The notes: generated by a model from the letters alone, not told the origin. Numbered from the stretch's first letter, positions 284-17,552 are shown. The stretch is DNA of 19,061 nucleotides from Promethearchaeota archaeon (GCA_048939465.1 JBHLPL010000029.1:1-19061), one strand, 5' to 3'. Numbers and translations are program-made.

Positions 284-338
284 AATCCTATCTTATCGGT
301 ATTTTAAGTATCGAATCTCTCTAGAACATATGTTCTGA
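284..338 (+). repeat. Intergenic repeat copy 1 (tail B, palindromic)
   Basis: AATCCTATCTTATCGGTATTTT-AAGTATCGAAT-CTCTCTAGAACATATGTTCTGA. The palindrome AGAACATATGTTCT is at 323-336. Confidence 0.8.
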
Positions 339-392
339 CTTTAGGACCCCAAGGATTATGGATCTGGTCCAAACAGGAAAGCCTACCCTACC

Positions 393-707
393 TTAGACCC
401 AGCCTTCCTTTTTCAGTATGTTCATCGAGACTCTGTTGCTCGGCCCATCTCCTCTTGCAACGGAGACACCGACGTTCTCCCCAACAGCTTCCTTTATTTC
501 TGCGACATCTTTATGGGTGAATCCGGGGCAAAGAAGGATGGAATGTATGCCTTCCTCTTTCAGAAGTCTCTCTGATGCATTAATGGCTTCTGCTTGGCTT
601 TTTACAAGCCTTATGAATAGTCTGAACTTGGATGTTCCAACCTGCCACTTATGATTCTCAGGATCTGCATCCGGGGTGTGGGCGATGAAAGCTACCTTGA
701 ATACCAT
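393..707 (-). CDS. Small conserved hypothetical protein, DUF6506-like
   Basis: 104-aa ORF with an LLCPGF motif and C-terminal VARGDGPS. GAGGAG sits 9 nt upstream of the ATG at 707, so 707 is preferred over the TTG at 716. Family call is from memory. Confidence 0.7.
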   Translation of the reverse strand: MVFKVAFIAHTPDADPENHKWQVGTSKFRLFIRLVKSQAEAINASERLLKEEGIHSILLCPGFTHKDVAEIKEAVGENVGVSVARGDGPSNRVSMNILKKEGWV

Positions 708-790
708 ATTATTCAACTCCTCACGTGCTTTTTGGCTGCCATAGCCTTAATCTTACGGAATATTAAGGTCGCATCTGTTATAAGATTTCA

Positions 791-845
791 TGAAGAAGAT
801 TGAAGGTGTTTTGAAAATTGAATTCCTTCATAACATTTGCTCTAA
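791..845 (+). repeat. Intergenic repeat copy 2 (degenerate, tail B-like)
   Basis: GGTGTTTT-GAAAATTGAAT-TCCTTCATAACATTTGCTCTAA (805-845) has the same 41-nt spacing as copy 1. The left block has diverged. Confidence 0.55.
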
Positions 846-888
846 CAGAAGGGAATAGATCTAGAACATACTCTGATGTTATCACCTA

Positions 889-1836
889 CTAATAGTCAGA
901 AGCAGGAACAAAATCGCCCTGTTTTATCCTTCTTATTTCTTTCAGTTTCTCAACATACCTCTTAATAGACTCTATTTCAACAATTGAGCTCTTCTCTGCA
1001 GGAATCGAGAGTTGTTTAACCTCATAGCCTTTGTCCGCTATGTATTTTTTGGGAATCTCATATTCTATACCCAAATCTATGCACATCGATGGAGCCCAAA
1101 TCTTCGTCATTACTGCAGTTCCCATGTGGTGTATAAGACACTGAACTACTGAAACAGATAGCACCTTATCCAAGGGAATCTCCCAGTTCTCCTCTTTTTC
1201 CTCCTTCTTGTATCGGAACTTGAATTTTATCAACCTTTGAGATGTAACAAGTAGACCTCCATCTTCGGACGAGAAAATAATAGAGTAATGGACCCACTCA
1301 TCTGGACCAAGCAATTCCCTAGCCTCAACAGGTAGGGCCATTCTGAGTTTCTCTTGTTCAAGACAAAGTTCTACTCTTTGCTCATTAGGAACCCTGTAGT
1401 CACCTGAATCATCTTTTATTAGATACAGTCCGCAGTAATAGCATCGTAACTGCTCTTTTCCAGTAATAAAAGAACCACAGTAGGGACATCTATTGTGTTT
1501 TAAAAAATACGAGGCTTCTTCAACACCGAAATTCGCCTCAAAAGCCAACCTGATTCTCTCTTTTTCACGTTCCAGATACTCTGCTTCAAGTAAGGGCCCT
1601 TCTTTATCCCACCAAGCTTCGAATTCCTTCTCGTTCAGAGTGAGATAGACCTTCTTTCCCTTGATTTTGTCGATCATATTCCTGGGGAGTATGAATGATC
1701 CGCTTCGTCCAACATAATGGGAGGAAACCGTGGCAAGAATTTCATTTCCTAAAATCTCTCTGACCACACCTAGCTTCTTGTTATCAGAACTTCGGACTTC
1801 TGAATATTTCTCTGTTAACTTGGATATCTCATCCAT
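889..1836 (-). CDS. Hypothetical protein with a central zinc ribbon and a C-terminal bacterial PH-like domain
   Basis: CPYCG...CYYCG double CxxC, and GLLVTSQRLIKF...WEIPLDKVLSVSV, which resembles bPH domains. GGAGGGGG RBS precedes the ATG at 1836 (the ORF track starts at 1875). Confidence 0.75.
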   Translation of the reverse strand: MDEISKLTEKYSEVRSSDNKKLGVVREILGNEILATVSSHYVGRSGSFILPRNMIDKIKGKKVYLTLNEKEFEAWWDKEGPLLEAEYLEREKERIRLAFEANFGVEEASYFLKHNRCPYCGSFITGKEQLRCYYCGLYLIKDDSGDYRVPNEQRVELCLEQEKLRMALPVEARELLGPDEWVHYSIIFSSEDGGLLVTSQRLIKFKFRYKKEEKEENWEIPLDKVLSVSVVQCLIHHMGTAVMTKIWAPSMCIDLGIEYEIPKKYIADKGYEVKQLSIPAEKSSIVEIESIKRYVEKLKEIRRIKQGDFVPASDY

Positions 1837-1933
1837 CAAAATCCCCCTCCAGTAACTCCGTAAAGATAGTGACAAAACGATTTAATATAATTTGCCTTGC
1901 CAGAATCAGAAACGGCAATAGCCATACGATCAC

Positions 1934-1967
1934 AGATTCTCGTTTTTTTCGTTTTAATAATCTGAAT
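1934..1967 (+). repeat. Intergenic repeat copy 3 (partial/degenerate)
   Basis: GTTTT-AATAATCTGAAT (1951-1967) preceded by a T-rich block; no tail. It lies between divergent genes. Confidence 0.4.
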
Positions 1968-1975
1968 CATTTATA

Positions 1976-2425
1976 ATGCAGTGCAAGAATATTCAATTGA
2001 GTGGACAAGAAAGATTGTCCCTTAAGGCGATCAGAGTGTCTCCAAAATGCTCGTGGTGTGGAAAAAAGGGAGAGAATGTTATCCACGAAAAGTTGAGTTT
2101 CAGAGGGGCGGCTGAGGAAGCGTTTTTCTGTAATCTGGATCACTTAGAAAAAACACGAGAGTTCCTAAAATACGCCGAGTCTCATTTCTGGCATTTTATA
2201 ATGAGCATAATAGTACTTCCCGTTATTGGTATGTTAATTACATTTACGATCCTGGAAAATGTAGGTCTGCTAATTATCTTTGGAGGATTGGGTCTGACAA
2301 TCATAGTATTCCCATTTGCAACCCCCCAAACAAACAGTCTATTAGGATTCAAGAACGCAATTCGACTCATTAGAATAATCGGAGTGGCTTTAGCAGGTGC
2401 AGGGATAATTCTGCTTTTACTATGA
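1976..2425 (+). CDS. Membrane protein with an N-terminal TRASH/YHS-like metal-binding motif
   Basis: CSWCG...FFCNLDH followed by about 3 hydrophobic helices and FPFATPQT. The true start may be downstream. Confidence 0.7.
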   Translation: MQCKNIQLSGQERLSLKAIRVSPKCSWCGKKGENVIHEKLSFRGAAEEAFFCNLDHLEKTREFLKYAESHFWHFIMSIIVLPVIGMLITFTILENVGLLIIFGGLGLTIIVFPFATPQTNSLLGFKNAIRLIRIIGVALAGAGIILLLL

Positions 2426-2426
2426 C

Positions 2427-2472
2427 AATCTTTTTCGCGGCTTTTTTAGTGATGGCATGAAAACTGATTTGA
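2427..2472 (+). repeat. Intergenic repeat copy 4 (tail A)
   Basis: AATCTTTTTCGCGGCTTTTTT-AGTGATGGCAT-GAAAACTGATTTGA; begins 1 nt after the TGA at 2425. Confidence 0.65.
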
Positions 2473-2532
2473 TGTGGTTTTCCAGTAATCCTTATATCTC
2501 TGAAAAGGCTAATTCTTCCTCCGGGGAGAAAT

Positions 2533-3036
2533 ATGGCAGGATTTCGTTTTCATTATGCAGAGTTGCTCCTGTTATCCAGCACGATTATCGGAGTCCTCAT
2601 CCCCTTTTTCGGTCCTTTGACTGTATGTCTCCGTCTGGCTATATGGGATAGTTGGACTGTAATATCTGTTATGACACCTCTGACCATAATGAATATTCTT
2701 ATAGGGATTTCATGGCCCCCTCTCATTGCTGTAAGCATTACTAGGTTCCCCGAGGGACATTCAGAGCCAACCGCCCGACTAGGTCTGAGAAGACTGATAT
2801 ATTTTATTCTTCTGGTGGCCGCAATAATCCTCTTCTGGCCAGTACTTATCCGTGCATTACCAAACCTACCGGTTGGTACCAGATACATATATATACCTGA
2901 ATTCGAAGGGGGACTGATAAGGCCTTCGGCAGGAGTAAGCATAAGCTTGATCTATTTCTTCTATATCCTGATCGCTAACATCTCAGTCTGGAGTTTTGGA
3001 CATTTCAAAAGACTAAGAATAGCAAATCCTCCATAA
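2533..3036 (+). CDS. Hypothetical membrane protein (about 4 TM)
   Basis: 167-aa ORF, GGGGAG RBS, four hydrophobic segments. Confidence 0.75.
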   Translation: MAGFRFHYAELLLLSSTIIGVLIPFFGPLTVCLRLAIWDSWTVISVMTPLTIMNILIGISWPPLIAVSITRFPEGHSEPTARLGLRRLIYFILLVAAIILFWPVLIRALPNLPVGTRYIYIPEFEGGLIRPSAGVSISLIYFFYILIANISVWSFGHFKRLRIANPP

Positions 3037-3042
3037 AGAGAA

Positions 3043-3106
3043 AACCCTGTTTTGCGGGTGTTCTAATAACAGGATTTATTCCTGAACCTTTTGGAACACA
3101 TGTTAC
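3043..3106 (+). repeat. Intergenic repeat copy 5 (tail B-like)
   Basis: AACCCTGTTTTGCGGGTGTTCT-AATAACAGGAT-TTATTCCTGAAC..., followed by GAACACATGTTA at 3094-3105. Confidence 0.75.
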
Positions 3107-3241
3107 ATATGGCTAAACTCTTCTTTCGAGTGTTCCTTTTGGAACGGAAGACTTAAGTGTCTCACAGATTGGAGTACTTTATGAAGGAGTGATTCCTGCA
3201 CCAAGGCATATGTGCCAAATGACGGGGAGGGATATGGAAGG

Positions 3242-4036
3242 ATGGGGGAGAGTGAATTTACGGAAGGTGCTGTTAGTCAATTACTTTTCGTGATCGGTGC
3301 TGCTCTGACGATTATTGTCTCCCTCGTCGTACCTATTATTGCCCCAATTACTGGTCTTTATGAGACTTACATTGCTATTACATCAATCTTTGCATTGCGT
3401 CCAATAGATATTGACTGGCACTCTCCCTTAAGAGATCTTGATGGTCGACCATACTGGGCCAGCAAAATCCTTTTGCCATCAATTGTTGGAATTATCAATT
3501 CTGGGATTCTTCTTGTTTCGATCGTACTGTTAGTCAGGTCTGTCACTGGAGTGACTAAAAGATTCAATCCGAGCGATACGGGCAGGGCCACTACCAAATC
3601 CCTAATCGCTGTGGCCACTTTTGCAACAGTAATGGGCATGGTTTCTTCAGTGTTATTTCCCTCACTGATAATATATTCCTTCCGAGAGCATACAGGAGGA
3701 ATAATACCTGAAATGCCGCCTTTTAGTTACGATCTTAACATCATGGGCTGGGCTCTACTTATTCTTGAAGTGTTTTCCGGGGGACTAATGATACTGTTGG
3801 TCGGAATCCTATTTCTAGCGTATCGGAATTGCCTCGAGACCAACAGGCTCTGGTATGAAACCGGAATAATCTACATTCTAGCAGGGTTTTTCTTAATAGC
3901 TGGAACATTCTGTTTCTCTATGTTATTATCGCCCATCGGTTTGGTATTGACGATTATAGCCGGAATTGCTGGGACAGCGGGCTTTGCCATAACCAAAACC
4001 TCGACGGAGAAAGAATTAGAAGGCCTACAGATGTGA
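3242..4036 (+). CDS. Multi-pass membrane protein, DUF996/DUF973-like, paralog 1
   Basis: 5-6 TM segments; LVGILFLAYRN...LWYETGIIYILAG. The ATG at 3242 follows G-rich RBS-like sequence (the ORF track uses GTG 3212). Confidence 0.75.
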   Translation: MGESEFTEGAVSQLLFVIGAALTIIVSLVVPIIAPITGLYETYIAITSIFALRPIDIDWHSPLRDLDGRPYWASKILLPSIVGIINSGILLVSIVLLVRSVTGVTKRFNPSDTGRATTKSLIAVATFATVMGMVSSVLFPSLIIYSFREHTGGIIPEMPPFSYDLNIMGWALLILEVFSGGLMILLVGILFLAYRNCLETNRLWYETGIIYILAGFFLIAGTFCFSMLLSPIGLVLTIIAGIAGTAGFAITKTSTEKELEGLQM

Positions 4037-4058
4037 GAAAGATATCATAAGTAGCCAA

Positions 4059-4113
4059 GATCTTGTCTCTGTGCTATCTTAATGATTGGATTTCTCTCAG
4101 AACAAATGTTCCA
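4059..4113 (+). repeat. Intergenic repeat copy 6 (tail B)
   Basis: GATCTTGTCTCTGTGCTATCTT-AATGATTGGAT-TTCTCTCAGAACAAATGTTCCA; GAAC-N4-GTTC at 4100-4111. Confidence 0.75.
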
Positions 4114-4205
4114 GTATAGGAGGCATTTCGGTCCGATTTACCTTGGAAACATAGATTTAAATCGTTCAAAGTGATATTTATACACGATATTAAGGGGGAA
4201 GAACT

Positions 4206-5258
4206 ATGGATGGGGGACAACGTCTAGTCGGGCTACTAGGTCAAGTTCTCATTATAATCAGTGCTATCGTGACGATCATTTTTTCACTCGTAATGTTCTT
4301 TCCTATTCCACCCGATTCCCCCCTGCTATTCTCCATTATTCAAACACCGCCCTTTGGTCTCCCCATAATAGATTTTTACTACTATTATACCCCTTATTGG
4401 GACGTAGTAAGGGGCTGCAGTTTTAGGTATCCTGAAGAAGACTGGTTCAACTTGACTTCCGGATCTTCCTTCATCGGAATTCTTAATTCTTCGATCTTTT
4501 TCATTTCTATAATACTTGTGATAATCTCTGTTTACAGAACAGCCCAGGGATCAGGTGGGAATTCTGGAACCACAGTCAAAGCCAGAAATCTATTCATAGC
4601 TACTTTAACTTTTGCTTTATTCGCTTATTTCTTAAGTATCCTATCTCACGTGTTCTCGATGGGTATGGTTACTTATTCTTACGAACGTGTAGGATTCCTT
4701 GCAGGATTTCCAAAAGCATCATCGATCACCCATATTTACCTAAACAGTTTTGGCTGGATTCTCCTAATCTTACAGAACACTTTTGGAGTGATGATGATGG
4801 TTCTAGTTGGCGTATTCTTCAAAGCAATAGCCTCCGAAATACAAAAAAGCAGTCAACAAACCAGAAGGCTTTGGTCTGTTATAGGAAAAACATACGTAAT
4901 GTTAGGTGGAACAATAGCCTTCACTATTTTTATAACCCTTGCACAGGCAAACATGACATTCTTGGTGCCAATAATGCTAATTGTCTCAGGAGTTGTAGGA
5001 GCAACCGGCTTCATCAAATTCAAACCCACAATGTTCCCAATAATGACAGGCACGAGCGGATCTATGAGGAATACACCGGGATCGGTTATTGAAGCAGTCT
5101 ACGACACGGAGGCTTCATCAAAAGAAATTGAACTAGAAGTGCTTAAGAATGAAGGATACAAATTTGTGATAATCTCCGAAATCAAGTGTGTGAACTGCAG
5201 TTACGAGAATCCGATTGATGCTGAATTCTGCGTAAGATGCGGTCAGCGCTTGAAATAG
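4206..5258 (+). CDS. Multi-pass membrane protein, DUF996-like paralog 2, with a C-terminal double zinc ribbon
   Basis: AAGGGGG RBS; about 6 TM segments; LVGVFFKA...LWSVIGKTYVMLG; ends in CVNCSYENPIDAEFCVRCG. Confidence 0.8.
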   Translation: MDGGQRLVGLLGQVLIIISAIVTIIFSLVMFFPIPPDSPLLFSIIQTPPFGLPIIDFYYYYTPYWDVVRGCSFRYPEEDWFNLTSGSSFIGILNSSIFFISIILVIISVYRTAQGSGGNSGTTVKARNLFIATLTFALFAYFLSILSHVFSMGMVTYSYERVGFLAGFPKASSITHIYLNSFGWILLILQNTFGVMMMVLVGVFFKAIASEIQKSSQQTRRLWSVIGKTYVMLGGTIAFTIFITLAQANMTFLVPIMLIVSGVVGATGFIKFKPTMFPIMTGTSGSMRNTPGSVIEAVYDTEASSKEIELEVLKNEGYKFVIISEIKCVNCSYENPIDAEFCVRCGQRLK

Positions 5259-5275
5259 AATATAAGCTCTTATGA

Positions 5276-5326
5276 CATCTTATTTTGCTAGTGTTTTAAT
5301 AATCGGATGAAAATTAATCCAGAAGC
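5276..5326 (+). repeat. Intergenic repeat copy 7 (tail A)
   Basis: CATCTTATTTTGCTAGTGTTTT-AATAATCGGAT-GAAAATTAATCCAGAAGC. Confidence 0.85.
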
Positions 5327-5455: not shown

Positions 5456-5932
5456 ATGCTTGGGAGAGTGAGGCGTTTGGTAACAGTCAGAAAAGCAAGA
5501 GTAGAGGATTTGGATGCCATAAACGAGCTGACCGACATAATGCACAGACATATGGCAAATCCCTACAGGTTAGAGTTGTCAAAGGAGGAGCTTGAAGAAG
5601 AACACTTCGGTGAAGGAGAGCTGGAGAATACATACGTCGCAGAGAGCGCAGGAAACGTTTTCGGATATATTTCGTTCTCTAAGGGAAAGAATGAGTGGGC
5701 GGGTCCCTACTATGAAATTGAGCATATTGTGGTCGCCGAAAAACACAGGAGGCAGCGTATCGGAAAAGGACTCTTCAACATCGTTCTTGAGAAAGCCAAA
5801 AGAGAGAAGGTAAACATCACAGCGGGGACGCTTGCGAAAAATCAGGGGGCGCTAAGATTCTATGAAGAACTCGGCTTCAAACCTCTGTCCATAGGCCTTC
5901 TGCTCGACATTCAGAAAAGGATACCAGAGTAG
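5456..5932 (+). CDS. GNAT family N-acetyltransferase
   Basis: Motif A IVVAEKHRRQRIGKGL and motif B NQGALRFYEELGF. The start may be the TTG at 5477. Confidence 0.9.
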   Translation: MLGRVRRLVTVRKARVEDLDAINELTDIMHRHMANPYRLELSKEELEEEHFGEGELENTYVAESAGNVFGYISFSKGKNEWAGPYYEIEHIVVAEKHRRQRIGKGLFNIVLEKAKREKVNITAGTLAKNQGALRFYEELGFKPLSIGLLLDIQKRIPE

Positions 5933-5973: not shown

Positions 5974-6024
5974 AATCTCTTTTTTGCTGGTGTTTTAGTA
6001 ATTGGATGAAAGCTATTTCAAGAC
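5974..6024 (+). repeat. Intergenic repeat copy 8 (tail A)
   Basis: AATCTCTTTTTTGCTGGTGTTTT-AGTAATTGGAT-GAAAGCTATTTCAAGAC; between convergent genes. Confidence 0.85.
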
Positions 6025-6080: not shown

Positions 6081-6476
6081 TCAGTATCGAGCCACATCAT
6101 CTGTTACATCCAAGTCTCGACCGCACCTTATGCAAAAATCAGCATCCGCAGGGTTCTTGTAACCGCAATCAGGACATGAAAGCACAGCTGTTTCTGATCC
6201 AACATCTTCGGGTGTTGTTTCTTCACGATGGGTTGGGCTGGTGATGGAGTCAACCATAGGTTCAATTGCTTGCGTTCCTCTTGATGAAGACCAATAAATA
6301 CCGAAGACTGCCAAACCTGCAAGGACGAATAATATTAAGAACATGGAGACAATTAGGAAAATCCCCCCACGTAATCGCCCAATTCCCCCAAGTGCAAAAA
6401 ATGCCAATAGGAAGAGCACAAGTATGGCACAAATGGCACTGCTGCTCCTTTTATCGCGTGTACTCAGACTCCCCAT
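6081..6476 (-). CDS. Membrane protein (2 TM) with a C-terminal double zinc ribbon
   Basis: Two hydrophobic helices, an acidic linker and CPDCGYKNPADADFCIRCG. Confidence 0.85.
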   Translation of the reverse strand: MGSLSTRDKRSSSAICAILVLFLLAFFALGGIGRLRGGIFLIVSMFLILFVLAGLAVFGIYWSSSRGTQAIEPMVDSITSPTHREETTPEDVGSETAVLSCPDCGYKNPADADFCIRCGRDLDVTDDVARY

Positions 6477-6521
6477 CCCTCCATCAACTAACTACAGAAT
6501 TAGCACTAAAAAATCTTTGCA

Positions 6522-6554
6522 AATCTTGTTTTGCTGGTATTTTGATAATCGGAT
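6522..6554 (+). repeat. Intergenic repeat copy 9 (core only, no tail)
   Basis: AATCTTGTTTTGCTGGTATTTT-GATAATCGGAT. The last base is shared with the stop codon of the 6554-7060 gene. Confidence 0.85.
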
Positions 6555-7060
6555 TAGTCAATTACCACGAATGGTATCGGCTGCACTACCAAAGTGTATC
6601 CCTCTCCAAATAACCCGAAGGATGAACTACCGGTTACTGTATATGTGCCCGGCGTGCTTGGAGTCCAATTCAAGGTTTGCTGTGTTGACTGATAGGGACC
6701 GAGTGTGATATTAGACACATACATAAGATAACACGGATGATCCTGAGACCATTTGTAGATGATTGTGCCGTGGGCGTTTCTGATCAAAAAGTCAAAGAGA
6801 TCACTACATGGAAACCACAACTCAATTGCCCTTTCGGCAGTGTTTGTTAGAATGAAGGTTACACCCATAACCTCTCCTGCCGTATGCTGATTCGCAGCGA
6901 TCTCAACCCTTAAGCTTACAGGAGGGGCAAAAGTGGGTTCGGACCGAAGGTGTCGCCAAAGTATGTAGGCCACTGGGGGGGTGGCTACAATCACGATTAT
7001 TAGAGCCGCAATTCCTATCATTGTTCCCTTTTCCATTCCTATGGCCCTTCTGGAAGTCAT
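6554..7060 (-). CDS. Membrane-anchored BsuPI-like (intracellular proteinase inhibitor/Ig-like) domain protein
   Basis: N-terminal TM helix, then FDFLIRNAHGTIIYKWS...LGPYQS...LNW...PGTYTV, typical of BsuPI-like domains. The start may be the ATG at 7036. Confidence 0.7.
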   Translation of the reverse strand: MTSRRAIGMEKGTMIGIAALIIVIVATPPVAYILWRHLRSEPTFAPPVSLRVEIAANQHTAGEVMGVTFILTNTAERAIELWFPCSDLFDFLIRNAHGTIIYKWSQDHPCYLMYVSNITLGPYQSTQQTLNWTPSTPGTYTVTGSSSFGLFGEGYTLVVQPIPFVVID

Positions 7061-7149
7061 TTAAGTTAGGAGGCAATTCTGACAGAATTGATTTTTTTCT
7101 CCCTCTTCCCTCATATCATAGTTGATTTGATTCTATAAGAAGATTCAGA

Positions 7150-7189
7150 AATCTTGTCTTGTGGTGTTTCAACAATCGAATGAAAACTA
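7150..7189 (+). repeat. Intergenic repeat copy 10 (tail A, truncated)
   Basis: AATCTTGTCTTGTGGTGTTTC-AACAATCGAAT-GAAAACTA. The terminal CTA is the TAG stop of the 7187-7636 gene. Confidence 0.8.
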
Positions 7190-7636
7190 CAGGCCTTGCT
7201 CGATGCTGCGACCGCATCCTACGCAGAATCGTGCGTCACGCGGATTTACACAACCACAGTAAGAACACACGAGTTTAAAGGTAGAGACCGGTACGAATCG
7301 TCTTGCTCTTTTTCTACGTAGTAGTTTCCCTAAAGACTCCTTAACAGATTTTAGACGTCTATCAGAGTACGCCTTGACAGCCATTGATTCAGGAATTCTC
7401 TTCCGAAATTCTCTTATCTTCTTGACACAAAATCTTAATGCCAGGAATACTCCAGGAATCTCTGATCTCTTCTTTCCAGACCGCTTAATATATATAATTA
7501 GAAAATTCGCCATAGACACATAATTCCTGAGGCTTTCACGGGCAGCCCCTGCCTCCCATTCATAACCTAGCCCATCAAGGTATTTGGGTGTTTTGCGCCT
7601 TTTCAGTTCCATAATCCTTACCGTCTGGTTCTCCAT
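7187..7636 (-). CDS. Basic hypothetical protein with a C-terminal double zinc ribbon
   Basis: 149-aa Lys/Arg-rich ORF ending in CSYCGCVNPRDARFCVGCG. Confidence 0.75.
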   Translation of the reverse strand: MENQTVRIMELKRRKTPKYLDGLGYEWEAGAARESLRNYVSMANFLIIYIKRSGKKRSEIPGVFLALRFCVKKIREFRKRIPESMAVKAYSDRRLKSVKESLGKLLRRKRARRFVPVSTFKLVCSYCGCVNPRDARFCVGCGRSIEQGL

Positions 7637-7800
7637 CTTTTTGAATCATATTCCGCAGTAATCCATCCTGAGATGGTACTTCACTGCGTAACGATGCAAA
7701 CATATTGCAAACACAATTGCGAGAATATCTGTGGCAAAAGCTATTAATGTCTTTCCTCTTTGAAAAGGCTTTCCTAAACCTGAGGCTATAAGATCTTAAA

Positions 7801-7856
7801 GATCCTATTTTGATGGTGTTGTAATAATTGGATGAGGAACGTGTTTAGGAGCTTCT
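7801..7856 (+). repeat. Intergenic repeat copy 11 (tail A)
   Basis: GATCCTATTTTGATGGTGTTGT-AATAATTGGAT-GAGGAACGTGTTTAGGAGCTTCT. Confidence 0.8.
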
Positions 7857-7936
7857 CGTGCAGTAACCGAAGCTCACTATCGGCTACCGTAGATTTCATC
7901 TTTTGCTGCTCAGCCCTTCTAGCTTCACCAATCCAT

Positions 7937-9427: not shown

Positions 9428-9480
9428 GATCTGCTGGCTAAATGAACTGAATAATCGAATGAAGACTAACCTTAGATCTT
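9428..9480 (+). repeat. Intergenic repeat copy 12 (tail A, left block diverged)
   Basis: GATCTG...(22-nt block)-AATAATCGAAT-GAAGACTAACCTTAGATCTT; spacing identical to the consensus. Confidence 0.6.
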
Positions 9481-9609
9481 TTTTTCATTTAGTGATGCTC
9501 CAAGATATACATCCGAGAGTTGAATCAAAAACATTCGAGATCGCCGTATAAAATATTCTTAAATGACACTATCTTCAATTATACCATACGATTGATTTGG
9601 GGATAACAG

Positions 9610-10263: not shown

Positions 10264-10354
10264 AATCACAAATCCATTGAATCTGATTCTTTTGTAGTAA
10301 TCCATTTCGCTTTGCCGATGGTTTTCTTTCATGATGTCCGTCAAAAACTCCAAA

Positions 10355-10409
10355 AACCTTGCTTTGCTGGTGTTTTAATGATTGGATGGGGGGTAATCTA
10401 AGAGCTTCT
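10355..10409 (+). repeat. Intergenic repeat copy 13 (tail A)
   Basis: AACCTTGCTTTGCTGGTGTTTT-AATGATTGGAT-GGGGGGTAATCTAAGAGCTTCT. Confidence 0.85.
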
Positions 10410-10538
10410 TCCGCGTGGTAATGCTTCCCGAAGAGTCTCTATGAAAAACTGGCTCCCTTTAGGTGTGCCTGTAACGATAAACAAGTATATAGATGCAACA
10501 CCGATGATCTTCGCAAGAGTATTAAATCTTCGTCCCAA
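10398..10538 (-). CDS. Putative 46-aa single-TM small protein (not in the ORF track)
   Basis: AGGGGAG RBS 8 nt upstream of TTG 10538; MGRRFNTLAKIIGVASIYLFIVTGTPKGSQFFIETLREALPRGRSS. The stop lies inside repeat copy 13. Confidence 0.4.
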   Translation of the reverse strand: MGRRFNTLAKIIGVASIYLFIVTGTPKGSQFFIETLREALPRGRSS

Positions 10539-10569
10539 AGGATTTTCTCCCCTGATTCTCAGCAATTAT

Positions 10570-11058
10570 TCATCCAATCTCTTCCTTCCCCAAGGAACTC
10601 CTCCTTCCATTTATCAAATAGGCCAGTACTATTACGTTCATAGCCGGCACAATCACATACAATAGGAGCTTTGCAGGTAGCGAGTTCGTCGAATAGAGAG
10701 GATAGAGTATTAAGCCTATTGTGCTGGAAGGAAATACCACCGCAATCGCTATCCAAAATCCTAAATAAGGGACCAATATCATTATTGCTTTATCCCATGC
10801 CCAGATAGGTCTCTTGATAAGACCGATACCTAACAAAATGATGCATATTCCCCAGATGACTGAAAAGACGTCATAGCCTAGAGTTATTTCAAGAGGTACA
10901 TAAGGGTACATGTGTCCTCCGCCTGCAGCAGCAAAGTCGAATAGTCCGGCAACGACTGACAGTGTGCCGGATGCTATCATAAATAGGCCCAGAATCAAAT
11001 TCAAAGATTCTGATCTCTTGGAATTGGAACTCAGCCGAGGCTCCCCCTCTTCATTCAT
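10570..11058 (-). CDS. Hypothetical membrane protein (about 4 TM)
   Basis: 162-aa ORF with four hydrophobic segments, including G.GL.KR..WAW. Confidence 0.8.
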   Translation of the reverse strand: MNEEGEPRLSSNSKRSESLNLILGLFMIASGTLSVVAGLFDFAAAGGGHMYPYVPLEITLGYDVFSVIWGICIILLGIGLIKRPIWAWDKAIMILVPYLGFWIAIAVVFPSSTIGLILYPLYSTNSLPAKLLLYVIVPAMNVIVLAYLINGRRSSLGKEEIG

Positions 11059-11087
11059 TTTGATTATTATTGCAGCTCAATAAAAAG

Positions 11088-11145
11088 AATATTGTTTTCG
11101 CTGGCTTTTTAATAATCGGGTTTTCTTCTAGAACATATGTTCTAA
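11088..11145 (+). repeat. Intergenic repeat copy 14 (tail B)
   Basis: AATATTGTTTTCGCTGGCTTTTT-AATAATCGGGT-TTTCTTCTAGAACATATGTTCTAA; 16-bp palindrome TAGAACATATGTTCTA at 11129-11144. Confidence 0.85.
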
Positions 11146-11219
11146 GGTTCAGATAGGACGAAGCAGCCTTTTAGAGTACGAAGTCCCTCAGGAAAACGTT
11201 GTTTGTAGCTCTGATCACG

Positions 11220-11822
11220 TTACCCCTTGGGTCTGCTTACAAAAAAGCACACCGTCCCTTCAATACTCCCAACCACAATGGCCACAAGACTAACTATCCA
11301 AAGAGCAATCTTGTACCAATCTAAGGAAATTATTAAGCAAGCCCAAGCAGAGTACGTTATCAAGTATGTTATTCCGGCAATCATATAGATTATTCCAGTG
11401 GTAATCCAAAATGGTTCATAAACGAAATACCTACGATATGCTAGGAAAAATATGCCAATTAAGGTCGCCGTTCCCCCTATGGTAACCGCTGGCATAATCA
11501 GAAACAGATAAAGATAATACCGCCAGATATTATAACCGACTATTGGGTATATGATTTGTGCAACTATATAGAGTACCAAGGCAATTGTGCCGGTAATTAA
11601 TCCGAATATTGCTCCAATCCTACCTATTGGTGAACCGCTGAATCTGCGAGATATTTCTCTGATTGAAATCAAGTACAGTATAGCGGAGATAAGAAAGACT
11701 ATTTGAGCGGCAATGCCGAACAACAATAGGAGTTCCCACATCCAAGAGAAGAACAACAAAAAAGCTGAAACCATAAGGAATATCTGACTGATGCCAGCCT
11801 GAAAAAGCTCTTTTTCAACCAA
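11220..11822 (-). CDS. Multi-pass membrane protein, DUF996-like paralog 3
   Basis: About 6 TM segments; LIGIFFLAYRR...FWITTGIIYMIAG; G-rich RBS before the TTG. Confidence 0.8.
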   Translation of the reverse strand: MVEKELFQAGISQIFLMVSAFLLFFSWMWELLLLFGIAAQIVFLISAILYLISIREISRRFSGSPIGRIGAIFGLITGTIALVLYIVAQIIYPIVGYNIWRYYLYLFLIMPAVTIGGTATLIGIFFLAYRRYFVYEPFWITTGIIYMIAGITYLITYSAWACLIISLDWYKIALWIVSLVAIVVGSIEGTVCFFVSRPKG

Positions 11823-12007
11823 CCTCCACTCCCCCTTTTGGCTTTTCAGATAATACGAGTTCTAAATAGTGGTAACGAAGTAGATTTGAATGCATGTAAT
11901 TAATAAGCCTTCTGATGTCGTTTAGTTGGAATCTTATTCCTTATCTTGGTCATGAATATTAATTAGATCAAAGACATGCACGAAATGCGGTCGAGCACCA
12001 CAGGAAA

Positions 12008-12063
12008 AATCTTGTTTTGCTGATGTTTTAGTAGTTTGATTTCTTTTAGAACATATGTTCTGA
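12008..12063 (+). repeat. Intergenic repeat copy 15 (tail B)
   Basis: AATCTTGTTTTGCTGATGTTTT-AGTAGTTTGAT-TTCTTTTAGAACATATGTTCTGA; between divergent genes. Confidence 0.9.
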
Positions 12064-12187
12064 TATTAGATTCGATTTGCCAAAATAAAACCTAAAGAGG
12101 GTTTGACGGGTCTAAATCGATCAGTATAAGAAATAATACGCTATTAATGAAATGTGTAGAAAAAGCTACACAAACGTGGTGTCACAG

Positions 12188-12658
12188 ATGATAATAAGAC
12201 GGATGGAAGATAAGGATTATGAGGCCTTCAAAGGCCTTTTTGAAGAGGCTTACGGTGAATACTTGAAATCCCTGAAAGAAAGAGACCCCCAGAAATATCA
12301 AAAAGAACTAAAAGAAGAAAGAAAAGTAACCCGCGAACGATTTGAATTTTACCTTGAAACCGGAAGCAGCTTCGTTGCCGAAGATGGTGAGGTTATCGGC
12401 TATGTGGTCAGTCAAACACTGAATTTTGTGCGCGGGTTTGACAGGTTGCTTTGGATTGAGTACGTAGTCGTTAAGAAGAAGCTTCGGAGACGAGGAATAG
12501 GGCTTGCACTTCTACGTAAGCTCACAGAATATGCCAGACGATCAAATGTAGATCGAATATATACAACAATTAATCCAGACAATGTGGCCTCCATAAGACT
12601 GCATCTGAAGGCCGGCTTTGATGTCAAGAACTGGAGAACTGCTTCTTACACAGCATAA
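12188..12658 (+). CDS. GNAT family N-acetyltransferase
   Basis: WIEYVVVKKKLRRRGIGLALL and NVASIRLHLKAGF. GTGGTG RBS favours the ATG at 12188 over 12152. Confidence 0.9.
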   Translation: MIIRRMEDKDYEAFKGLFEEAYGEYLKSLKERDPQKYQKELKEERKVTRERFEFYLETGSSFVAEDGEVIGYVVSQTLNFVRGFDRLLWIEYVVVKKKLRRRGIGLALLRKLTEYARRSNVDRIYTTINPDNVASIRLHLKAGFDVKNWRTASYTA

Positions 12659-12676
12659 TTTTGACAGCAGGAATCA

Positions 12677-12730
12677 AATCTTGTTCTGTCGGTGTTCTAA
12701 TTCTTGGATGAAAACTAATCTAAGAACTCA
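12677..12730 (+). repeat. Intergenic repeat copy 16 (tail A)
   Basis: AATCTTGTTCTGTCGGTGTTCT-AATTCTTGGAT-GAAAACTAATCTAAGAACTCA. Confidence 0.9.
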
Positions 12731-12733
12731 TAA

Positions 12734-12904
12734 TCAAGAAGAATGCCAAAAAGGTTCGTCTAGCCACGAACTCTCTTCTTCCTCATAACAATCAACACAT
12801 AGATCATCAAAAGCTATGCAGGCTGGGCAGACCGATCTTCCGCAGATCGAGCACTCTACCAGATCCTCTTCATCGCAATCTAGACCACAGATCTCACATT
12901 CCAA
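12734..12904 (-). CDS. 56-aa Cys-rich acidic zinc-finger-like small protein (not in the ORF track)
   Basis: AGGTGG RBS 7 nt upstream of TTG 12904; MECEICGLDCDEEDLVECSICGRSVCPACIAFDDLCVDCYEEEESSWLDEPFWHSS, with four CxxC pairs. It fills the gap between repeat copies 16 and 17. Confidence 0.8.
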   Translation of the reverse strand: MECEICGLDCDEEDLVECSICGRSVCPACIAFDDLCVDCYEEEESSWLDEPFWHSS

Positions 12905-12932
12905 GAATATTCCACCTTGTTACATGTATGTA

Positions 12933-12984
12933 ATGATTTGCACCGTGGAGTTTTAATGGTTTTCTTGTTGCCTAATCTAAGAGC
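12933..12984 (+). repeat. Intergenic repeat copy 17 (degenerate, tail A)
   Basis: GGAGTTTTAATG (from 12947) ... CTAATCTAAGAGC (12972-12984); spacing within 1 nt of the consensus. Confidence 0.55.
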
Positions 12985-13197
12985 GTTTCAAAAATGAAAT
13001 AAAACTGAGTAACAGACATTATCCCGAAGCAGCATCAGTTGGCTGTTTGTTATAAGAAGATAGTCGAAGATGAGGAATTGCTTAAGCTGAAGGAATTGCT
13101 CGTACAGAATCGGCCTTAGTGTGGAAAGAGGACCCAGAAAAGACCCCTATAACCAAACTCGAACATAAAGGAAAATGAGGGGGGAGGCAAAAAGATT

Positions 13198-15063
13198 TCA
13201 CTTCTTTGACAAGATAACGACTGATTCATATCTAATCATCCCTTCTCTTGTTTTCTCAAGTTCTCTTGTTATCACTCTATCCTTGGTAAGAGCTATATCC
13301 TCATCTTTAGCCATTTCCCAGATTACCTTGTCATTTTTTACCTCCACATAGTTCGAATCTAGCTTGTAATGATTATTTCCAATGATTATTACGCATTTGG
13401 CCTCTCTTTTCATCACCCTACTCATTTCTTTGAGAGTTAGACGTATATCTTTGAAGAATTTGTAAGTTCTCATGGCAGCGTTTCTCCTTCCACCATTCAA
13501 GAGATTAAGAATAATGGCCCTAGCAGTCTCAGGGAGCTGTTGAAAATCGTCCTTTCTCTTCTTAATTTCGTCTATCAATTCACGCGGGTAGTGTCTTAAG
13601 TTGGGATTTCCTACCATGTTTTCATGCAATTTCTCCAATGAAGGGACGAGATCAAGTAATGTAAGTTGAGGATAGTCATTTTTGATGTAGTCCAATGCCG
13701 TGGAGTATGGAGGAGAGTTAACTATAGCGTCAATCGTTTCTGTTTTTATTCCGATATCCTCATTATTCCATTTTTTGCAGCTGTTCCTCATGTCTCTTGT
13801 ATCGCCAATGTATGTTTCTGATTTTCCAAGACGAATCTTGAGAACCTCATTGAGTTTATGGAAAAGGTATATTCTTAGGTAAAGATTCCTGAGTCTTCCT
13901 TCTAAAACATCAACGAATTCTGCCCTTCTTCTTCTAGTTAAGTCGCTTATTGTCCCACTTAAGCCTAAAAGAAGGAAGTTCTTAATCTGTTCCTCAGGAA
14001 TTGATTTTGCTATTTCATGTGCAACAAGAATCTTTTTGATATCGCCCTCTTTGTAAAATAGCTTAATCATCTTATCAGGCATTTTTTTGCTTCGAGCAGT
14101 TATTTCTTTGTAGTTATACTCAGATTCTACAAGTAATGAATCTCCTTTAGATTGGCGTTCCAGACACAAGATAGCAGCGTTTACTCTCTTCAGGAAACTC
14201 TCTATTTTCCTCCGCAAGAGTGACGTATCCAAAAATAATGAATGACACTTTACATTTGACATCAAAACTGATAACGGGTTTATCTCGATTCCTATACTGT
14301 CTAGCCCCAAAAGTGAAGCTTCAACTAATAAAGTTCCGCTCCCCGCAAAATTGTCCATTATAAGACCTTGATCATTTGGAAAGACATAATTCAGTAGTGC
14401 TCGAACCATTTTTGGATGGAATTTTCCTTTATAGGGATGCATATAATGTGTAAGGTAAAGGGAGGGTTCCTCTCTAATGGCAAAATAGTCCTCAAGACGC
14501 TTTCCTATCGCCATTGTCGAGGACGCAGGAATCCTATAGAGTCTATTCGTTAAAAAATCAAAGAGTGAATTTACATTCCTATCAACTTCTTCTTCGTTCC
14601 TGCTCAGCTTTGAAATGTACTGTGATTTTTCAAGAAAGTATTGATGTACAATAAACCTGAAGAGGATGTGGTTCCCACTTTTGAAGTATTGCACATTTTT
14701 GCCCAGGATACCTTCCGGAAAAATCTTATTAAGCAGTCTCTCCGGGTCTTCGCTACTTTTTATTACTTGGAAGAACTCTCGAGTGTAAGCAAGCTTTCGT
14801 ACAAGGTTCGAGACATTTTGGATCTCCTCGGTTGTTCCATAAAATCCATGAAATTCTCCATAAGGCAGCTCATGTGTAAGAATGTCCTGAATACGTATAT
14901 TATCAGTTGTAAAAAGCTTAAGCGGCTCTTCATTCATTACATCTACGAAATTCCTTACTCTTCCTGTTTTACCAAACAGACTTGTTAGTTCTAGTTCAGC
15001 GAAATCTACTTCATGTTTCTCCTTTATACTGTTGGAAAGCTTGAAGTAATAATGGACGGCCAT
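13198..15063 (-). CDS. Amino-DNA methyltransferase, probably N4-cytosine, alpha motif order, with a long N-terminal extension
   Basis: HPYKGKFHP, motif I DNFAGSGTLLVEA and a later motif IV NSPPY. About 200 extra N-terminal residues. The start is ATG 15063 or TTG 15069. Confidence 0.85.
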   Translation of the reverse strand: MAVHYYFKLSNSIKEKHEVDFAELELTSLFGKTGRVRNFVDVMNEEPLKLFTTDNIRIQDILTHELPYGEFHGFYGTTEEIQNVSNLVRKLAYTREFFQVIKSSEDPERLLNKIFPEGILGKNVQYFKSGNHILFRFIVHQYFLEKSQYISKLSRNEEEVDRNVNSLFDFLTNRLYRIPASSTMAIGKRLEDYFAIREEPSLYLTHYMHPYKGKFHPKMVRALLNYVFPNDQGLIMDNFAGSGTLLVEASLLGLDSIGIEINPLSVLMSNVKCHSLFLDTSLLRRKIESFLKRVNAAILCLERQSKGDSLLVESEYNYKEITARSKKMPDKMIKLFYKEGDIKKILVAHEIAKSIPEEQIKNFLLLGLSGTISDLTRRRRAEFVDVLEGRLRNLYLRIYLFHKLNEVLKIRLGKSETYIGDTRDMRNSCKKWNNEDIGIKTETIDAIVNSPPYSTALDYIKNDYPQLTLLDLVPSLEKLHENMVGNPNLRHYPRELIDEIKKRKDDFQQLPETARAIILNLLNGGRRNAAMRTYKFFKDIRLTLKEMSRVMKREAKCVIIIGNNHYKLDSNYVEVKNDKVIWEMAKDEDIALTKDRVITRELEKTREGMIRYESVVILSKK

Positions 15064-15323
15064 TTCCAAGGTTCACCAAACAGCTCTTCCTGTTGAATCT
15101 CAACCCTTTTTACTCCTTATTTATGATGAAGAATATTTAAACACTGTTGAGCTAGCTAAAATAAGAATGATGTTTAATCGAAAAAGAGACCGATAGATTT
15201 GTGTTCCTATGACAGGCCTTCTCCGATTTTCTGCTTTATCAGCCGCGTCTTCGCTTGAAAGACCACCCTGCCGTTATCCTCGCATTGCCAGCACGGTTCT
15301 TTTTCCTAAGAATTGAAACCCAA

Positions 15324-16169
15324 TTAATCTTCGACAAATGAGTTTAGTCTTTTAGTTTGGCTCTTCATGGTCTCGGTTGTCTCACTCAGTAAGGGAAACG
15401 CCTCCAATGCCTTTTTCATACTTAACGCTGCGATTCCTGGAGGCGGTCTAGCAAATGACCCTGCAAATCTTGCTAATGATGCACGTTTGAGAAGTACCGC
15501 TGTCAAATGCGCAAATGTCAGAAGCGTATTCCGTCTGCCGTATGCTTGGTTTACGGTATCATAGCCCAGTGTGGAATATTTCACATCTTCATTCAACGCA
15601 ATTACATCCGTAAAATACAGGAGAACATCCAGCGGTATTTCTCCGACTTCAGGAACTAGCATTCTGATTCTGTCGATAACAACCGTCGGTGGACTGAGTC
15701 TCCATATCCCAGGTTCAGTTTCCTTGTGGTCGAGCATAAAGGCATTACGAACTAAGAGACTGCCCATCAGCTCTAATGCAAACTCGCTTTTCTTGCCCAT
15801 TTCCAACAAAAGGCCAAACATATCTTCAAAAGTAAGGCTTCGCCTAAGTCTGTTTTGACCGAGAAAAATCACAGGAAACATATCGTTTGGATTGTTTGTT
15901 TGTACGCCGTCTTTTGTGGTGCATTGTTTGTAATCTGGGGCGGCTTCTTTTCCCGGTTTTCCAAGACAAACCTTGTTTTCGCCAATAACATATAAGTTTT
16001 GATAGGTCTTTGAGGATTGACTGAGACCCTTTGGCCATGATTTGGCTTCTTCTATGCTCTGCTTTCTGCGTGGAGCAGAGAACTTATTCAGTCTGAGCTC
16101 AGATGGGATTTTAAGTGCGTCTCGTATCTTTCGCTTAATTAAATTGTTCGCGGGTTGCTCATTAATCAC
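15324..16169 (-). CDS. Hypothetical protein, putative restriction endonuclease partner of the methyltransferase
   Basis: 281-aa soluble ORF directly upstream of and co-oriented with the MTase, with no repeat between them; possible D-x-K in NEDVKY. Function is inferred from context only. Confidence 0.55.
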   Translation of the reverse strand: MINEQPANNLIKRKIRDALKIPSELRLNKFSAPRRKQSIEEAKSWPKGLSQSSKTYQNLYVIGENKVCLGKPGKEAAPDYKQCTTKDGVQTNNPNDMFPVIFLGQNRLRRSLTFEDMFGLLLEMGKKSEFALELMGSLLVRNAFMLDHKETEPGIWRLSPPTVVIDRIRMLVPEVGEIPLDVLLYFTDVIALNEDVKYSTLGYDTVNQAYGRRNTLLTFAHLTAVLLKRASLARFAGSFARPPPGIAALSMKKALEAFPLLSETTETMKSQTKRLNSFVED

Positions 16170-16268
16170 GACTCCCCCCCAACGTTTTTATTCCTTAAAC
16201 ACTAGTTTTGGTTGATGCCTGTAACTATGAGTTTTTCCTATATGAAACAAACTCTTTTAAAACAAAAG

Positions 16269-16323
16269 AATCTTATTTTGTGGCGTTTTAATACTTGGAT
16301 TTCTTTTAGAACGTATGTTCTAA
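16269..16323 (+). repeat. Intergenic repeat copy 18 (tail B)
   Basis: AATCTTATTTTGTGGCGTTTT-AATACTTGGAT-TTCTTTTAGAACGTATGTTCTAA; between divergent genes. Confidence 0.9.
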
Positions 16324-16505
16324 TGACTGAGACCCATTTTGCTTTCCAAATCCTCCGGTCCACAAACATCAAAATCGTTATAAACAGTTACAACAAAACA
16401 TCACGCCAGGGGGGGTTAGTGCCACCACATGCTGCCCCCTCTTCGTAGTTATCAGAAAGAAAAAATAACTCCGTTCTCCCATAATGAAATCAAGGGGGAC
16501 TCTCA

Positions 16506-17477
16506 ATGAAAGCTGTTGTTTACCGCGGGCCGAAAAAAATGAAACCTGAGGACGTACCGGAGCCTGAACCAGCTCAAAATGAGGTCTTGGTGAGGTTTAA
16601 GGCTGGCAGCATTTGTGGTACTGATATTCACTATTATAGAGGTGAGTGGAAGAGTCTAAAGATAGGAAGAATAATAGGGCATGATGCTTCGGGGCAGATT
16701 ATGGAGACGGCTCAAAGAGCGGCAATTGTCCCTTTTGTATCCTGTGGAGCCTGTAGATACTGCCTAGAGGGAAGACCCAATGTGTGTGAGAAATGGAGCA
16801 TAATGGGCTTCAACAGAGACGGATGCTTCTCTGAATTAATAGCAGTGCCGAGAGAGAATCTGCTTCCAATACCTAACAACGTCACTTACGAAGAGGCAGC
16901 GATACTTGAGCCAGTCGCCCTTGCGCTTCACACTTTTGACCTGCTTCAGCCAAGGTTTGGGCAATGGGCAACGATAGTGGGGCAAGGGCCCATAGGGCTT
17001 GTTATGACACAGGTAGCGAGAGCTTCAGGGTGCAGAGTCATTGCTATAGATTTAGAAGATTACCGATTAGCAATATCTGAGAATTATGGAGCAGAGGTAT
17101 GCATTAATCCAAAGAGTCAGAACGTTGTGGAAAAAGTGAGAACGATTACCGACGGGGGCTCGGGCATCGTTGTTGAAGCCGCCGGCAAAAAGGAAACTGT
17201 AGAACAGACTTCCAAATTAGTGAGTCGGACAGGAAAAGTAGCGCTGGTAGGTGAATCTTCAGGCACAATGAAATTCGAAGGTGAAGCGACTTTCTTCGGC
17301 GTATGGCTTAATCCCCTGAAATATGCTCTTGCGCTGGATTCGCTGTCAAAGGGAATCATAGATGTTAGAGGTTTGATTACTCATAGATTTCCTCTGACTG
17401 ATTTCGAGAGGGCGATTGAGACAGCCACCGACACTGAAAAGAGTCCTGTAAAGGTGATTCTTCAAGAGGAGCATTAG
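16506..17477 (+). CDS. Zinc-dependent medium-chain alcohol dehydrogenase (threonine/sorbitol dehydrogenase-like)
   Basis: ICGTD, GHD, structural Zn site CGACRYCLEGRPNVC, LEP and Rossmann GQGPIG; AAGGGGG RBS. Confidence 0.93.
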   Translation: MKAVVYRGPKKMKPEDVPEPEPAQNEVLVRFKAGSICGTDIHYYRGEWKSLKIGRIIGHDASGQIMETAQRAAIVPFVSCGACRYCLEGRPNVCEKWSIMGFNRDGCFSELIAVPRENLLPIPNNVTYEEAAILEPVALALHTFDLLQPRFGQWATIVGQGPIGLVMTQVARASGCRVIAIDLEDYRLAISENYGAEVCINPKSQNVVEKVRTITDGGSGIVVEAAGKKETVEQTSKLVSRTGKVALVGESSGTMKFEGEATFFGVWLNPLKYALALDSLSKGIIDVRGLITHRFPLTDFERAIETATDTEKSPVKVILQEEH

Positions 17478-17498
17478 TCAAAACCAAGAATCTTGAAG

Positions 17499-17552
17499 AA
17501 TCTTGTTTTGCTGGTGTCTTAATAAATGGATAAAAACTGATCTAGGAACTCA
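17499..17552 (+). repeat. Intergenic repeat copy 19 (tail A)
   Basis: AATCTTGTTTTGCTGGTGTCTT-AATAAATGGAT-AAAAACTGATCTAGGAACTCA; preceded by the tandem AAGAATCTTG x2 (17486-17505). Confidence 0.9.

Follow-up and report, generated by a model that had tools for sequence, protein, structure and literature searches.

The 19,061-bp contig C58 of the Asgard metagenome-assembled genome (MAG) G000, analysed here over its whole length and called the window below, carries a tandem array of mostly single, unrelated genes separated by copies of an approximately 34-nt core site, AAATCTTGTTTTGCTGGTGTTTTAATAATYGGAT. The sites are clustered and co-oriented, and their sequence is constant across three species of one genus; the gene units between them are re-ordered, and rearrangements end at the sites. 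The contig may be a cassette array formed at a sequence-defined site and served by a recombinase acting in trans.

The G000 assembly comprises 1.96 Mb in 152 contigs (91% complete, 43% G+C). A genome search gave Asgard genomes as its relatives, another of its contigs carries a thermosome gene, and one contig of the sister genome G001 has been deposited as 'Candidatus Hodarchaeota archaeon', all of which agrees with the archaeal origin given in a first-pass annotation of the window. The genus sample consisted of three genomes, G000, G001 (78% complete), and G002 (82% complete), and arrays were compared across 12 array-bearing sources, namely, the window and 11 loci from the three genomes. For wild strains, we used contigs assembled from four runs, which belong to two other studies (mangrove and an unnamed habitat), and aligned them to the window. 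The cargo was annotated with Pfam and PADLOC.

Core sites and cargo of the window

Fourteen clear copies of the core (284–317, 3043–3076, 4059–4092, 5276–5309, 5974–6008, 6522–6555, 7150–7182, 7801–7834, 10355–10388, 11088–11122, 12008–12041, 12677–12710, 16269–16301, and 17499–17532) are matched on the contig, at E<0.01, by a profile that was built from the clear copies. About five further copies are decayed (791–824, 1934–1967, 2427–2459, 9428–9461, and 12933–12966); the profile misses four of them, including the one at 791, recognised by eye only, and gives E=0.4 for the one at 2427. Cores 1934 and 2427 have well-preserved counterparts at orthologous places in two sister species, core 9428 retains the right half with its tail, and core 12933 the centre and right half with the tail. 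A repeat finder reports one family of 12 copies, all direct, and the 22-nt left part of the core, at up to three mismatches, has five matches in the window against 0.00 expected. The consensus of 52 sites from the three genomes is AAATCTTGTTTTGCTGGTGTTTTAATAATTGGAT, with the highest information in TTGTTTTG, TGGTG, and GGAT.

The contig also holds a left half-site at 17570–17595 (+), which ends in TTAAT and continues into CTCTTAGAC; the same junction precedes the radical-SAM gene in all three species. Between the last complete core and this half-site lie 37 nt (17533–17569) with no gene, an 'empty' or collapsed unit.

Every copy of the core is intergenic and on the + strand. Downstream of + strand genes, the core starts 2–40 nt (once 92 nt) past the stop codon, and next to – strand genes its end lies 0–230 nt from their stop codon. 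The genes themselves face both ways, with about 9 units on the + strand and about 10 on the – strand, and each unit holds one gene except for three, at 7937–9411, at 13198–16169, and around a small ORF near 12735–12905. The first-pass annotation, which had described a 33-nt core with spacing conserved to about 1 nt, always on the + strand, between mostly single-gene units split about evenly between strands, with a few multi-gene modules lacking an internal copy, was right on all these points; its count of 19 copies holds for the 14 solid ones, the other five being decayed, and it overlooked the half-site and two alternative right-hand tails.

These tails follow GGAT, and each is conserved in all three species. 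Tail A, found at 16 of the 52 sites, consists of TTTCTTT and the palindrome TAGAACATATGTTCTA, and tail B, found at 13, is GAAAACTAATCTAAGAGCT; the rest of the sites, with neither tail, are decayed or different. In the window, tail A follows cores 284, 4059, 11088, 12008, and 16269 and, in decayed form, core 3043, with the palindrome at 322–337, 11129–11144, 12047–12062, and 16307–16322. Tail B follows cores 2427, 5276, 5974, 7150, 9428, 10355, 12677, 12933, and 17499. At A-type sites the core is flanked by a 6-bp inverted repeat, GAAATC...GATTTC, 26 bp apart, whose centre, as we read the sequence, falls within the zone of exchange delimited below, as expected for a dimeric recombinase. The palindrome itself, (T)TAGAACATATGTTCTA(A), perfect over 16–20 bp, is not array-specific: at up to one mismatch it has 23 copies genome-wide on 19 contigs (e.g., C139:19983, C139:20303, and C138:92774). 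Of these, 21 are intergenic and most have no core, and the neighbouring genes may be convergent, divergent, or tandem. The palindrome, also written TTAGAACATATGTTCTAA, is probably the binding site of a dimeric protein.

In a longer variant of the repeat, of approximately 165 nt, conservation extends beyond the core in both directions, with TATTAATCGTAATTCAA before it and …ATTCTGAAGTAAACTTTAAC… after it. This variant occurs several times on G001:C6 (8855–8997, 18100–18270, and 19457–19587, with partial copies at 3089, 14540, and 15570) and in G000 (C74:15995–16146 and C4:10586–10674), embedded in a chromosomal region close to a family B DNA polymerase gene.

The cargo begins, after the first core, with a DUF6506 protein of 107 aa (393–716, –; Pfam), a 328-aa protein with weak DUF2171 and zinc-ribbon matches (889–1875, –), and a 149-aa protein of no family (1976–2425, +), the last of which has orthologs in G001:C50 and G002:C83. 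Two further proteins of no family, of 167 aa (2533–3036, +) and 274 aa (3212–4036, +), are followed by a 350-aa protein with a C-terminal zinc ribbon (4206–5258, +), a GNAT acetyltransferase (5456–5932, +; Pfam), and a zinc-ribbon protein of an array-expanded family (6081–6476, –; Pfam). Core 6522 overlaps the stop codon of the next gene, which encodes a BsuPI-like proteinase inhibitor domain (6554–7060, –) and has a paralogous unit on contig C103; beyond it lies a 149-aa protein (7187–7636, –) with a weak zinc-ribbon match below the Pfam cut-off.

A three-gene unit with no internal core (7937–9411) then combines a nitroreductase (–), a PadR regulator (+), and a GNAT (+). It is followed by a dienelactone hydrolase (9610–10263, +), two proteins of no family of 162 aa (10570–11058, –) and 200 aa (11220–11822, –), and the third GNAT acetyltransferase of the array (12152–12658, +). 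The unit after core 12677 holds a small Cys-rich open reading frame (ORF) of about 55 aa (12735–12905, –, coordinates approximate), matched by an 81% identical stretch in G001:C85. A two-gene unit (13198–16169, –) encodes a type II DNA methyltransferase (623 aa) and a 281-aa protein without a family match, which may be a nuclease; together they are likely a restriction–modification pair carried as one unit. The last complete core-bounded gene encodes a zinc-type alcohol dehydrogenase (16506–17477, +). Past the half-site, a unit of two genes (17605–19059, –) encodes a radical-SAM protein of 315 aa together with a multi-pass membrane protein truncated at the end of the contig; a further core follows this unit in G001:C50. 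The radical-SAM protein has no record in an exact-protein look-up, and we rejected its assignment as a viperin, as the PADLOC viperin models match the generic radical-SAM core only.

The core is concentrated in arrays. Elsewhere in G000 the profile has about six further matches in 1.94 Mb, on the short contigs C103, C147, and C144 and, as weak singles, on C39 and C74. At the weakest threshold, 20 out of 29 matches lie on three array contigs (C58, C103, and C147), and 14 out of 29 on C58, which makes up about 1% of the genome. A sequence-only covariance model matches 21, 28, and 10 times in the genus genomes and, among 58 further Asgard genomes, gives isolated weak matches only. A second sample covered 151 genomes of 52 genera; at E<=1e-4, all three genus genomes had a match and none of the 148 others did. 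The arrays of the genus comprise at least 21–28 sites per genome on contigs summing to more than 40 kb. Within each of the 12 array sources all matches at E<=0.01 are co-oriented, and the only two opposite-strand matches are at chance level (E 0.11 and 9.3). The first-pass annotation had noted that an even spread through the genome would point to a general repeat; since the copies are clustered, not spread through intergenic regions genome-wide, we discarded a dispersed regulatory or repetitive extragenic palindromic (REP)-like repeat.

A 19-nt degenerate-core pattern, scanned against genome and metagenome collections, returned mostly single chance matches in bacteria, and about 200 fetched loci, when rescored, showed real arrays only on the already known Hodarchaeota contig, the pattern being too loose to argue absence. 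A search for arrays in other genera via the zinc-ribbon family gave weak single matches only.

Exchange of units between species and strains

Units shared among the three species are 67–94% identical and the core consensus is unchanged, which indicates selection on the core sequence. Most orthologous units have different neighbours in different species. Thus, the unit 392–799 is found on G001:C33 and the unit 4229–5303 on G001:C90; the units 893–1960 and 1952–2448 lie on G001:C50 with one extra unit between them, and the three-gene unit (8012–9421), present there as a whole at 84% identity, is on their opposite side. On G001:C50 and G002:C83, the unit of gene 1976–2425 abuts the radical-SAM unit, and the window has approximately 15 kb of units between the two; the ends of this indel are at core 2427 on the left and at 17499/17570 on the right. 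When the arrays are turned cores-forward, every homology block of at least 250 nt is co-linear and has the same orientation relative to the cores, and 34 out of 64 right block ends are located between +0 and +45, counted from the start of a core.

Several cores are hybrids of two sites. In its left half (…GTTTTTTTCGTTTT), the decayed core 1934 is similar to the site found behind the orthologous unit in G001:C50 (…GTTTTTGACGTTTT), and in its right half (AATCTGAATCATTTATA) to the sites preceding the orthologs of the next unit in G001 and G002. Similarly, the left half of core 2427 (TCTTTTT…) stays with the unit 1976–2425 in all three species, and the sequence after TTTTAAT/TTTTAGT differs. Hybrid junctions are also present in G001 and G002. 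Left halves travel with the upstream unit and right halves with the downstream unit. The left ends of homology blocks are at +17 to +23, and the earliest right ends at +22 to +29; together with the hybrid cores, this brackets the exchange to GGTGTTTTAATAA, approximately model positions 17–29.

In wild populations, contigs join position 6553 to 11122, 6513 to 12705 via a 33-nt variant core, and 7138 to 17499. Runs X7 and X9 carry 1498 nt of other sequence (shorter sides 248–255 nt) in place of the 760 nt that separate cores 10355 and 11088 and hold the gene of the 162-aa protein; loose contig ends cluster at cores (277, 12041, 17500, and 17531). These joints rest on contigs, not reads, and several have short sides of 24–39 nt, each weak singly. 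Joints 17520 to 16293 and 17524 to 16281 could equally stem from a circle, a tandem copy, or another location; the stretch 637–1908 is without cover in runs X7 and X9 and was left uninterpreted. Between relatives and among wild strains, units are thus gained, lost, replaced, and put in another order, with breakpoints at the repeats, as the first-pass annotation had suggested looking for, and gene order is not conserved.

Possible mechanism and competing explanations

These observations could be accounted for by mobile gene units joined head to tail in the chromosome at a double-stranded site of about 34 bp. A unit would consist of a right half-site (AATYGGAT and the tail), one to three genes in either direction that apparently have space for promoters of their own, and, at the far end, the left half of the following site (AAATCTTGTTTTGCTGGTGTTTT). 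The DNA would be cut and rejoined within the central GGTGTTTTAATAA by a sequence-specific recombinase whose gene lies elsewhere in the genome or on an element outside the bins, so that units might be excised, inserted, replaced, and moved between arrays with polarity staying fixed. Exchange would then be conservative and site-specific and would presumably pass through a circular intermediate.

In order to find the enzyme, we searched the three genomes for PF00589, TIGR02249, NF040815, PF00239, PF01797, PF01548, and PF07282, compared the larger ORFs on array contigs with Pfam, and scanned the recombinase-bearing contigs for core-like sequence. G000 has four recombinase-type genes: a phage-type integrase adjoining a replication-protein-like gene (C43), a 429-aa integrase that is only sporadic in other Asgard genomes (C80), a large serine recombinase (C114), and one IS605 TnpA accompanied by TnpB (C105). 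With TIGR02249, the only matches were a C-terminal remnant of 33 residues on C97 and partial ones to a phage-type integrase, all below the cut-off. The tnpB gene is present in 6–8 copies in each of the three genomes, none of them in arrays. On the other array contigs, Pfam finds metabolic enzymes, methyltransferases, TPR and TIR proteins, ParB–DUF488, HerA, and further radical-SAM proteins. Two candidates were dropped: the 341-aa neighbour of the radical-SAM gene is a multi-pass membrane protein, and a tnpB contig, G001:C109, with a half-core about 600 nt away, was judged too weak and not used.

Several results weigh against a dedicated recombinase. Among the larger ORFs, no recombinase or transposase was found in the window or on the 11 other array contigs, so a neighbouring enzyme, which the first-pass annotation had named as supporting evidence, was not detected. 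None of the four recombinase-type genes of G000 is near a core or has a counterpart in G001 or G002, and the latter two have no match to a tyrosine, XerA-type, or serine recombinase; as both genomes are incomplete, the missing matches do not show absence, and if they were to hold in complete genomes, the genus would be without a Xer system. About a quarter of the sites are decayed, and neither a circular unit nor a precise empty site was seen. The best-supported wild joint, 226 to 3114 (three out of four runs, sides 34–90 nt), lies outside cores: it shows tail-like sequence, approximately 6 bp of microhomology, 9 other letters between the two sides, and no core left, with the first five sites and four units missing. 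Joint 12061 to 4117 falls just past the tail-A palindrome and not at a core centre.

These joints, as well as the joint 3223 to 4195, which lies between two similar genes outside a core, are what would be expected if the core were a conserved protein-binding or regulatory element (a terminator or insulator, or a nucleoid-protein site) and homologous recombination, unequal crossing-over, and gene conversion shuffled the genes with no dedicated recombinase. The lack of array-adjacent recombinases, and of any detected in two of the three genomes, would agree with that, and so would the sequence of the core, whose left half is T-rich (TTTT...TTTT) and lies 2–40 nt past the stop codons of + strand genes, like an archaeal terminator, and whose centre TTTTAATAAT can be read as TATA-box-like. 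However, a regulatory role leaves unexplained the strict co-orientation of sites among genes that face both ways about equally, and the element is not in ordinary intergenic regions. The hybrid cores place two independent exchanges in the same approximately 13 nt, between flanking halves that share only about 70% of their sequence, a very small length for recombination of the RadA type, and homologous recombination does not explain how unrelated genes first became flanked by the element. We therefore consider this explanation rather unlikely, although it is the most serious competitor of the cassette reading.

The cassette array served in trans is preferred because polarity is strict and independent of gene direction, the core is constant, the orientation of units is fixed, the site halves are inherited separately, and the zone of exchange is narrow. 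Our confidence in it is about evenly divided between acceptance and doubt, as the enzyme, a circular form, and base-precise junctions are missing. The first-pass interpretation is accordingly supported in part. For its claim that the array was built by a site-specific recombinase, the hybrid cores and the rearrangement ends at the sites are indirect evidence, the lack of an array-adjacent enzyme speaks against it, and we still infer, rather than observe, the recombinase. More tentatively, and inclining towards doubt, we propose that the array represents an independent gene-capture system, parallel to integrons, whose recombinase would belong to no searched family or be supplied by a virus or plasmid.

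The repeat might instead be a non-autonomous mobile element, such as a miniature inverted-repeat transposable element (MITE), a palindrome-associated transposable element (PATE), or a REP-like element, inserted with an orientation bias between existing genes. The genome has IS200/IS605 elements (TnpA with TnpB on C105, besides the other tnpB copies), which insert one way relative to replication, tail A ends in a hairpin-forming palindrome about 16 nt from the point of exchange, and a short hairpin lies immediately to the left of the core in about half of the copies. Still, there is no enrichment of folds: 51 sites folded with 70 nt upstream have a mean z of –0.38, with 10% below –2. Neither terminal inverted repeats nor target-site duplications were found, the unit ends AATYGGAT... 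and ...GGTGTTTTAAT not being inverted copies of each other, and the IS605 end hairpins on C105 (GC-rich, CCATCC...GGGTGGAG) are unrelated to the core or the tails. The palindrome occurs alone, without a core, about 20 times, the site halves are inherited separately with neighbouring units, and the gene content between sites is non-syntenic across species. Taken together, this makes a mobile repeat improbable.

Least probable of all, indeed very improbable, is an atypical integron array, i.e., a cluster of attC sites lacking integron-integrases (CALIN), with an IntI-type integrase still acting on its sites. Archaea do have integrons, which are enriched in Asgard genomes and mostly take the form of CALINs; their attC sites fold canonically and their ORFs are for the most part co-oriented (Ghaly et al. 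2022, PMC9668308). G000 has a trace of one: C97:3114–3212 (–) encodes the last approximately 33 codons of an IntI-like integrase (…LGHQNIKTTIVYTHVLNQSPKGAWRPVNDL), with no recognisable upstream part, and 1.4 kb from it, at C97:1649–1711, lies an attC-like hairpin with a complementary core/inverse-core pair; together these look like the remnant of a classical integron. The present sites behave differently. RNAalifold predicts no pairs for 14 aligned sites, and single-strand DNA folds of five sites on both strands (ten in total) have z from –1.7 to +0.9, no better than shuffles. In a genome-wide scan for complementary folded RYYYAAC/GTTRRRY pairs 45–140 nt apart, none lies on the window contig, such pairs being found only on C97 and C12. 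The array does have tandem units of unrelated genes between co-oriented sites, as integrons do; its ORFs, about 9 on + and 10 on –, are not mostly co-oriented with the sites. As to IntI, G000 has only the remnant, and no tyrosine recombinase match was obtained in the sister genomes. Membership in the attC/integron class was thus rejected on fold, core pair, IntI, and ORF polarity, in agreement with the first-pass view that these are not attC sites.

Two other classes were discarded. The window has no Rfam match at E<=1 and no tRNA gene, which leaves out a known RNA family or a tRNA-derived att site. A Xer/dif-type module was rejected since the core consensus has no 11-6-11 dyad, all copies are co-oriented, and no match reaches XerA level.

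Relation to known gene-capture systems

To our knowledge, no system for storing and shuffling single genes is well understood apart from integrons, which need a folded attC site and IntI. If the proposed reading is true, the array follows the same logic without IntI and with another type of site, and gene-cassette platforms arose more than once. Asgard archaea are the closest known relatives of eukaryotes, and the routes of gene import are under question there. In the literature on Asgard mobile elements, archaeal integron-like arrays, and archaeal tyrosine recombinases, we found no such array described; this coverage is incomplete and novelty unproven.

Functionally, integron arrays and CALINs are the closest: in both, tandem, mostly single-gene units of unrelated content lie between co-oriented sites, units are re-ordered, lost, and replaced between strains, and arrays are often without a nearby integrase. 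Like the present sites, the Vibrio repeats of chromosomal integrons keep a uniform sequence within a lineage. In contrast to integrons, the present sites are sequence-defined, without a hairpin or an inverse-core/core pair, no IntI is associated with them, the point of exchange is approximately in the middle of the site rather than 6 nt from its end, and the genes, which point in either direction, have space for promoters of their own.

Composite islands of the staphylococcal cassette chromosome (SCC), mobilised by the Ccr large serine recombinases, arise by serial insertion of elements at a double-stranded site, which leaves co-oriented direct repeats, and SCC elements that encode no recombinase can be mobilised in trans. 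SCC islands consist of a few elements of 3–60 kb at the 3' end of one gene, whereas the window has about 19 units of 0.25–3.3 kb, and the only large serine recombinase here (G000:C114) is neither near a core nor present in the sister genomes.

The pdif modules of Acinetobacter plasmids and the arrays of integrative mobile elements exploiting Xer (IMEX) at dif are likewise small modules with short double-stranded sites, served by a host Xer encoded elsewhere. Sites of the dif type are 11-6-11 imperfect inverted repeats (28 bp), and pdif sites alternate in orientation. The present core differs in lacking this dyad and in being strictly co-oriented; the archaeal dif (PMC2958812) was compared by layout only. 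The genus also has no XerA-level match.

Minimal mobile elements of Neisseria are alternative units exchanged between conserved flanks with no recombinase, by means of long flanking genes and natural transformation. Here, the flanks are repeats of 34–60 nt, found about 19 times in one direction.

The contents of the arrays, which include acetyltransferases, a restriction–modification pair, redox enzymes, and an expanded zinc-ribbon family, differ among co-occurring sediment strains, and the short, well-defined site could serve to fish cassettes from metagenomes, like attC primers. The family of small proteins with a C-terminal zinc ribbon has 11, 8, and 4 matches in the three genomes of the genus and 0–2 in other Asgard. 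Its members are mostly in arrays: in the window at 4206–5258 (+), 6081–6476 (–), and 7187–7636 (–), and also on C147, C103, and G001:C33. A 49-nt inverted repeat in the window (5196–5244/6119–6167) corresponds to the common coding part of the zinc ribbon. Beside the end of another piece of array, G000:C147 (1–6358) carries a defence-island-like cluster of genes for a HerA-type ATPase, a 371-aa protein without an assigned family, a DUF7664/GIY-YIG protein, and a DNA methyltransferase–DCD fusion.

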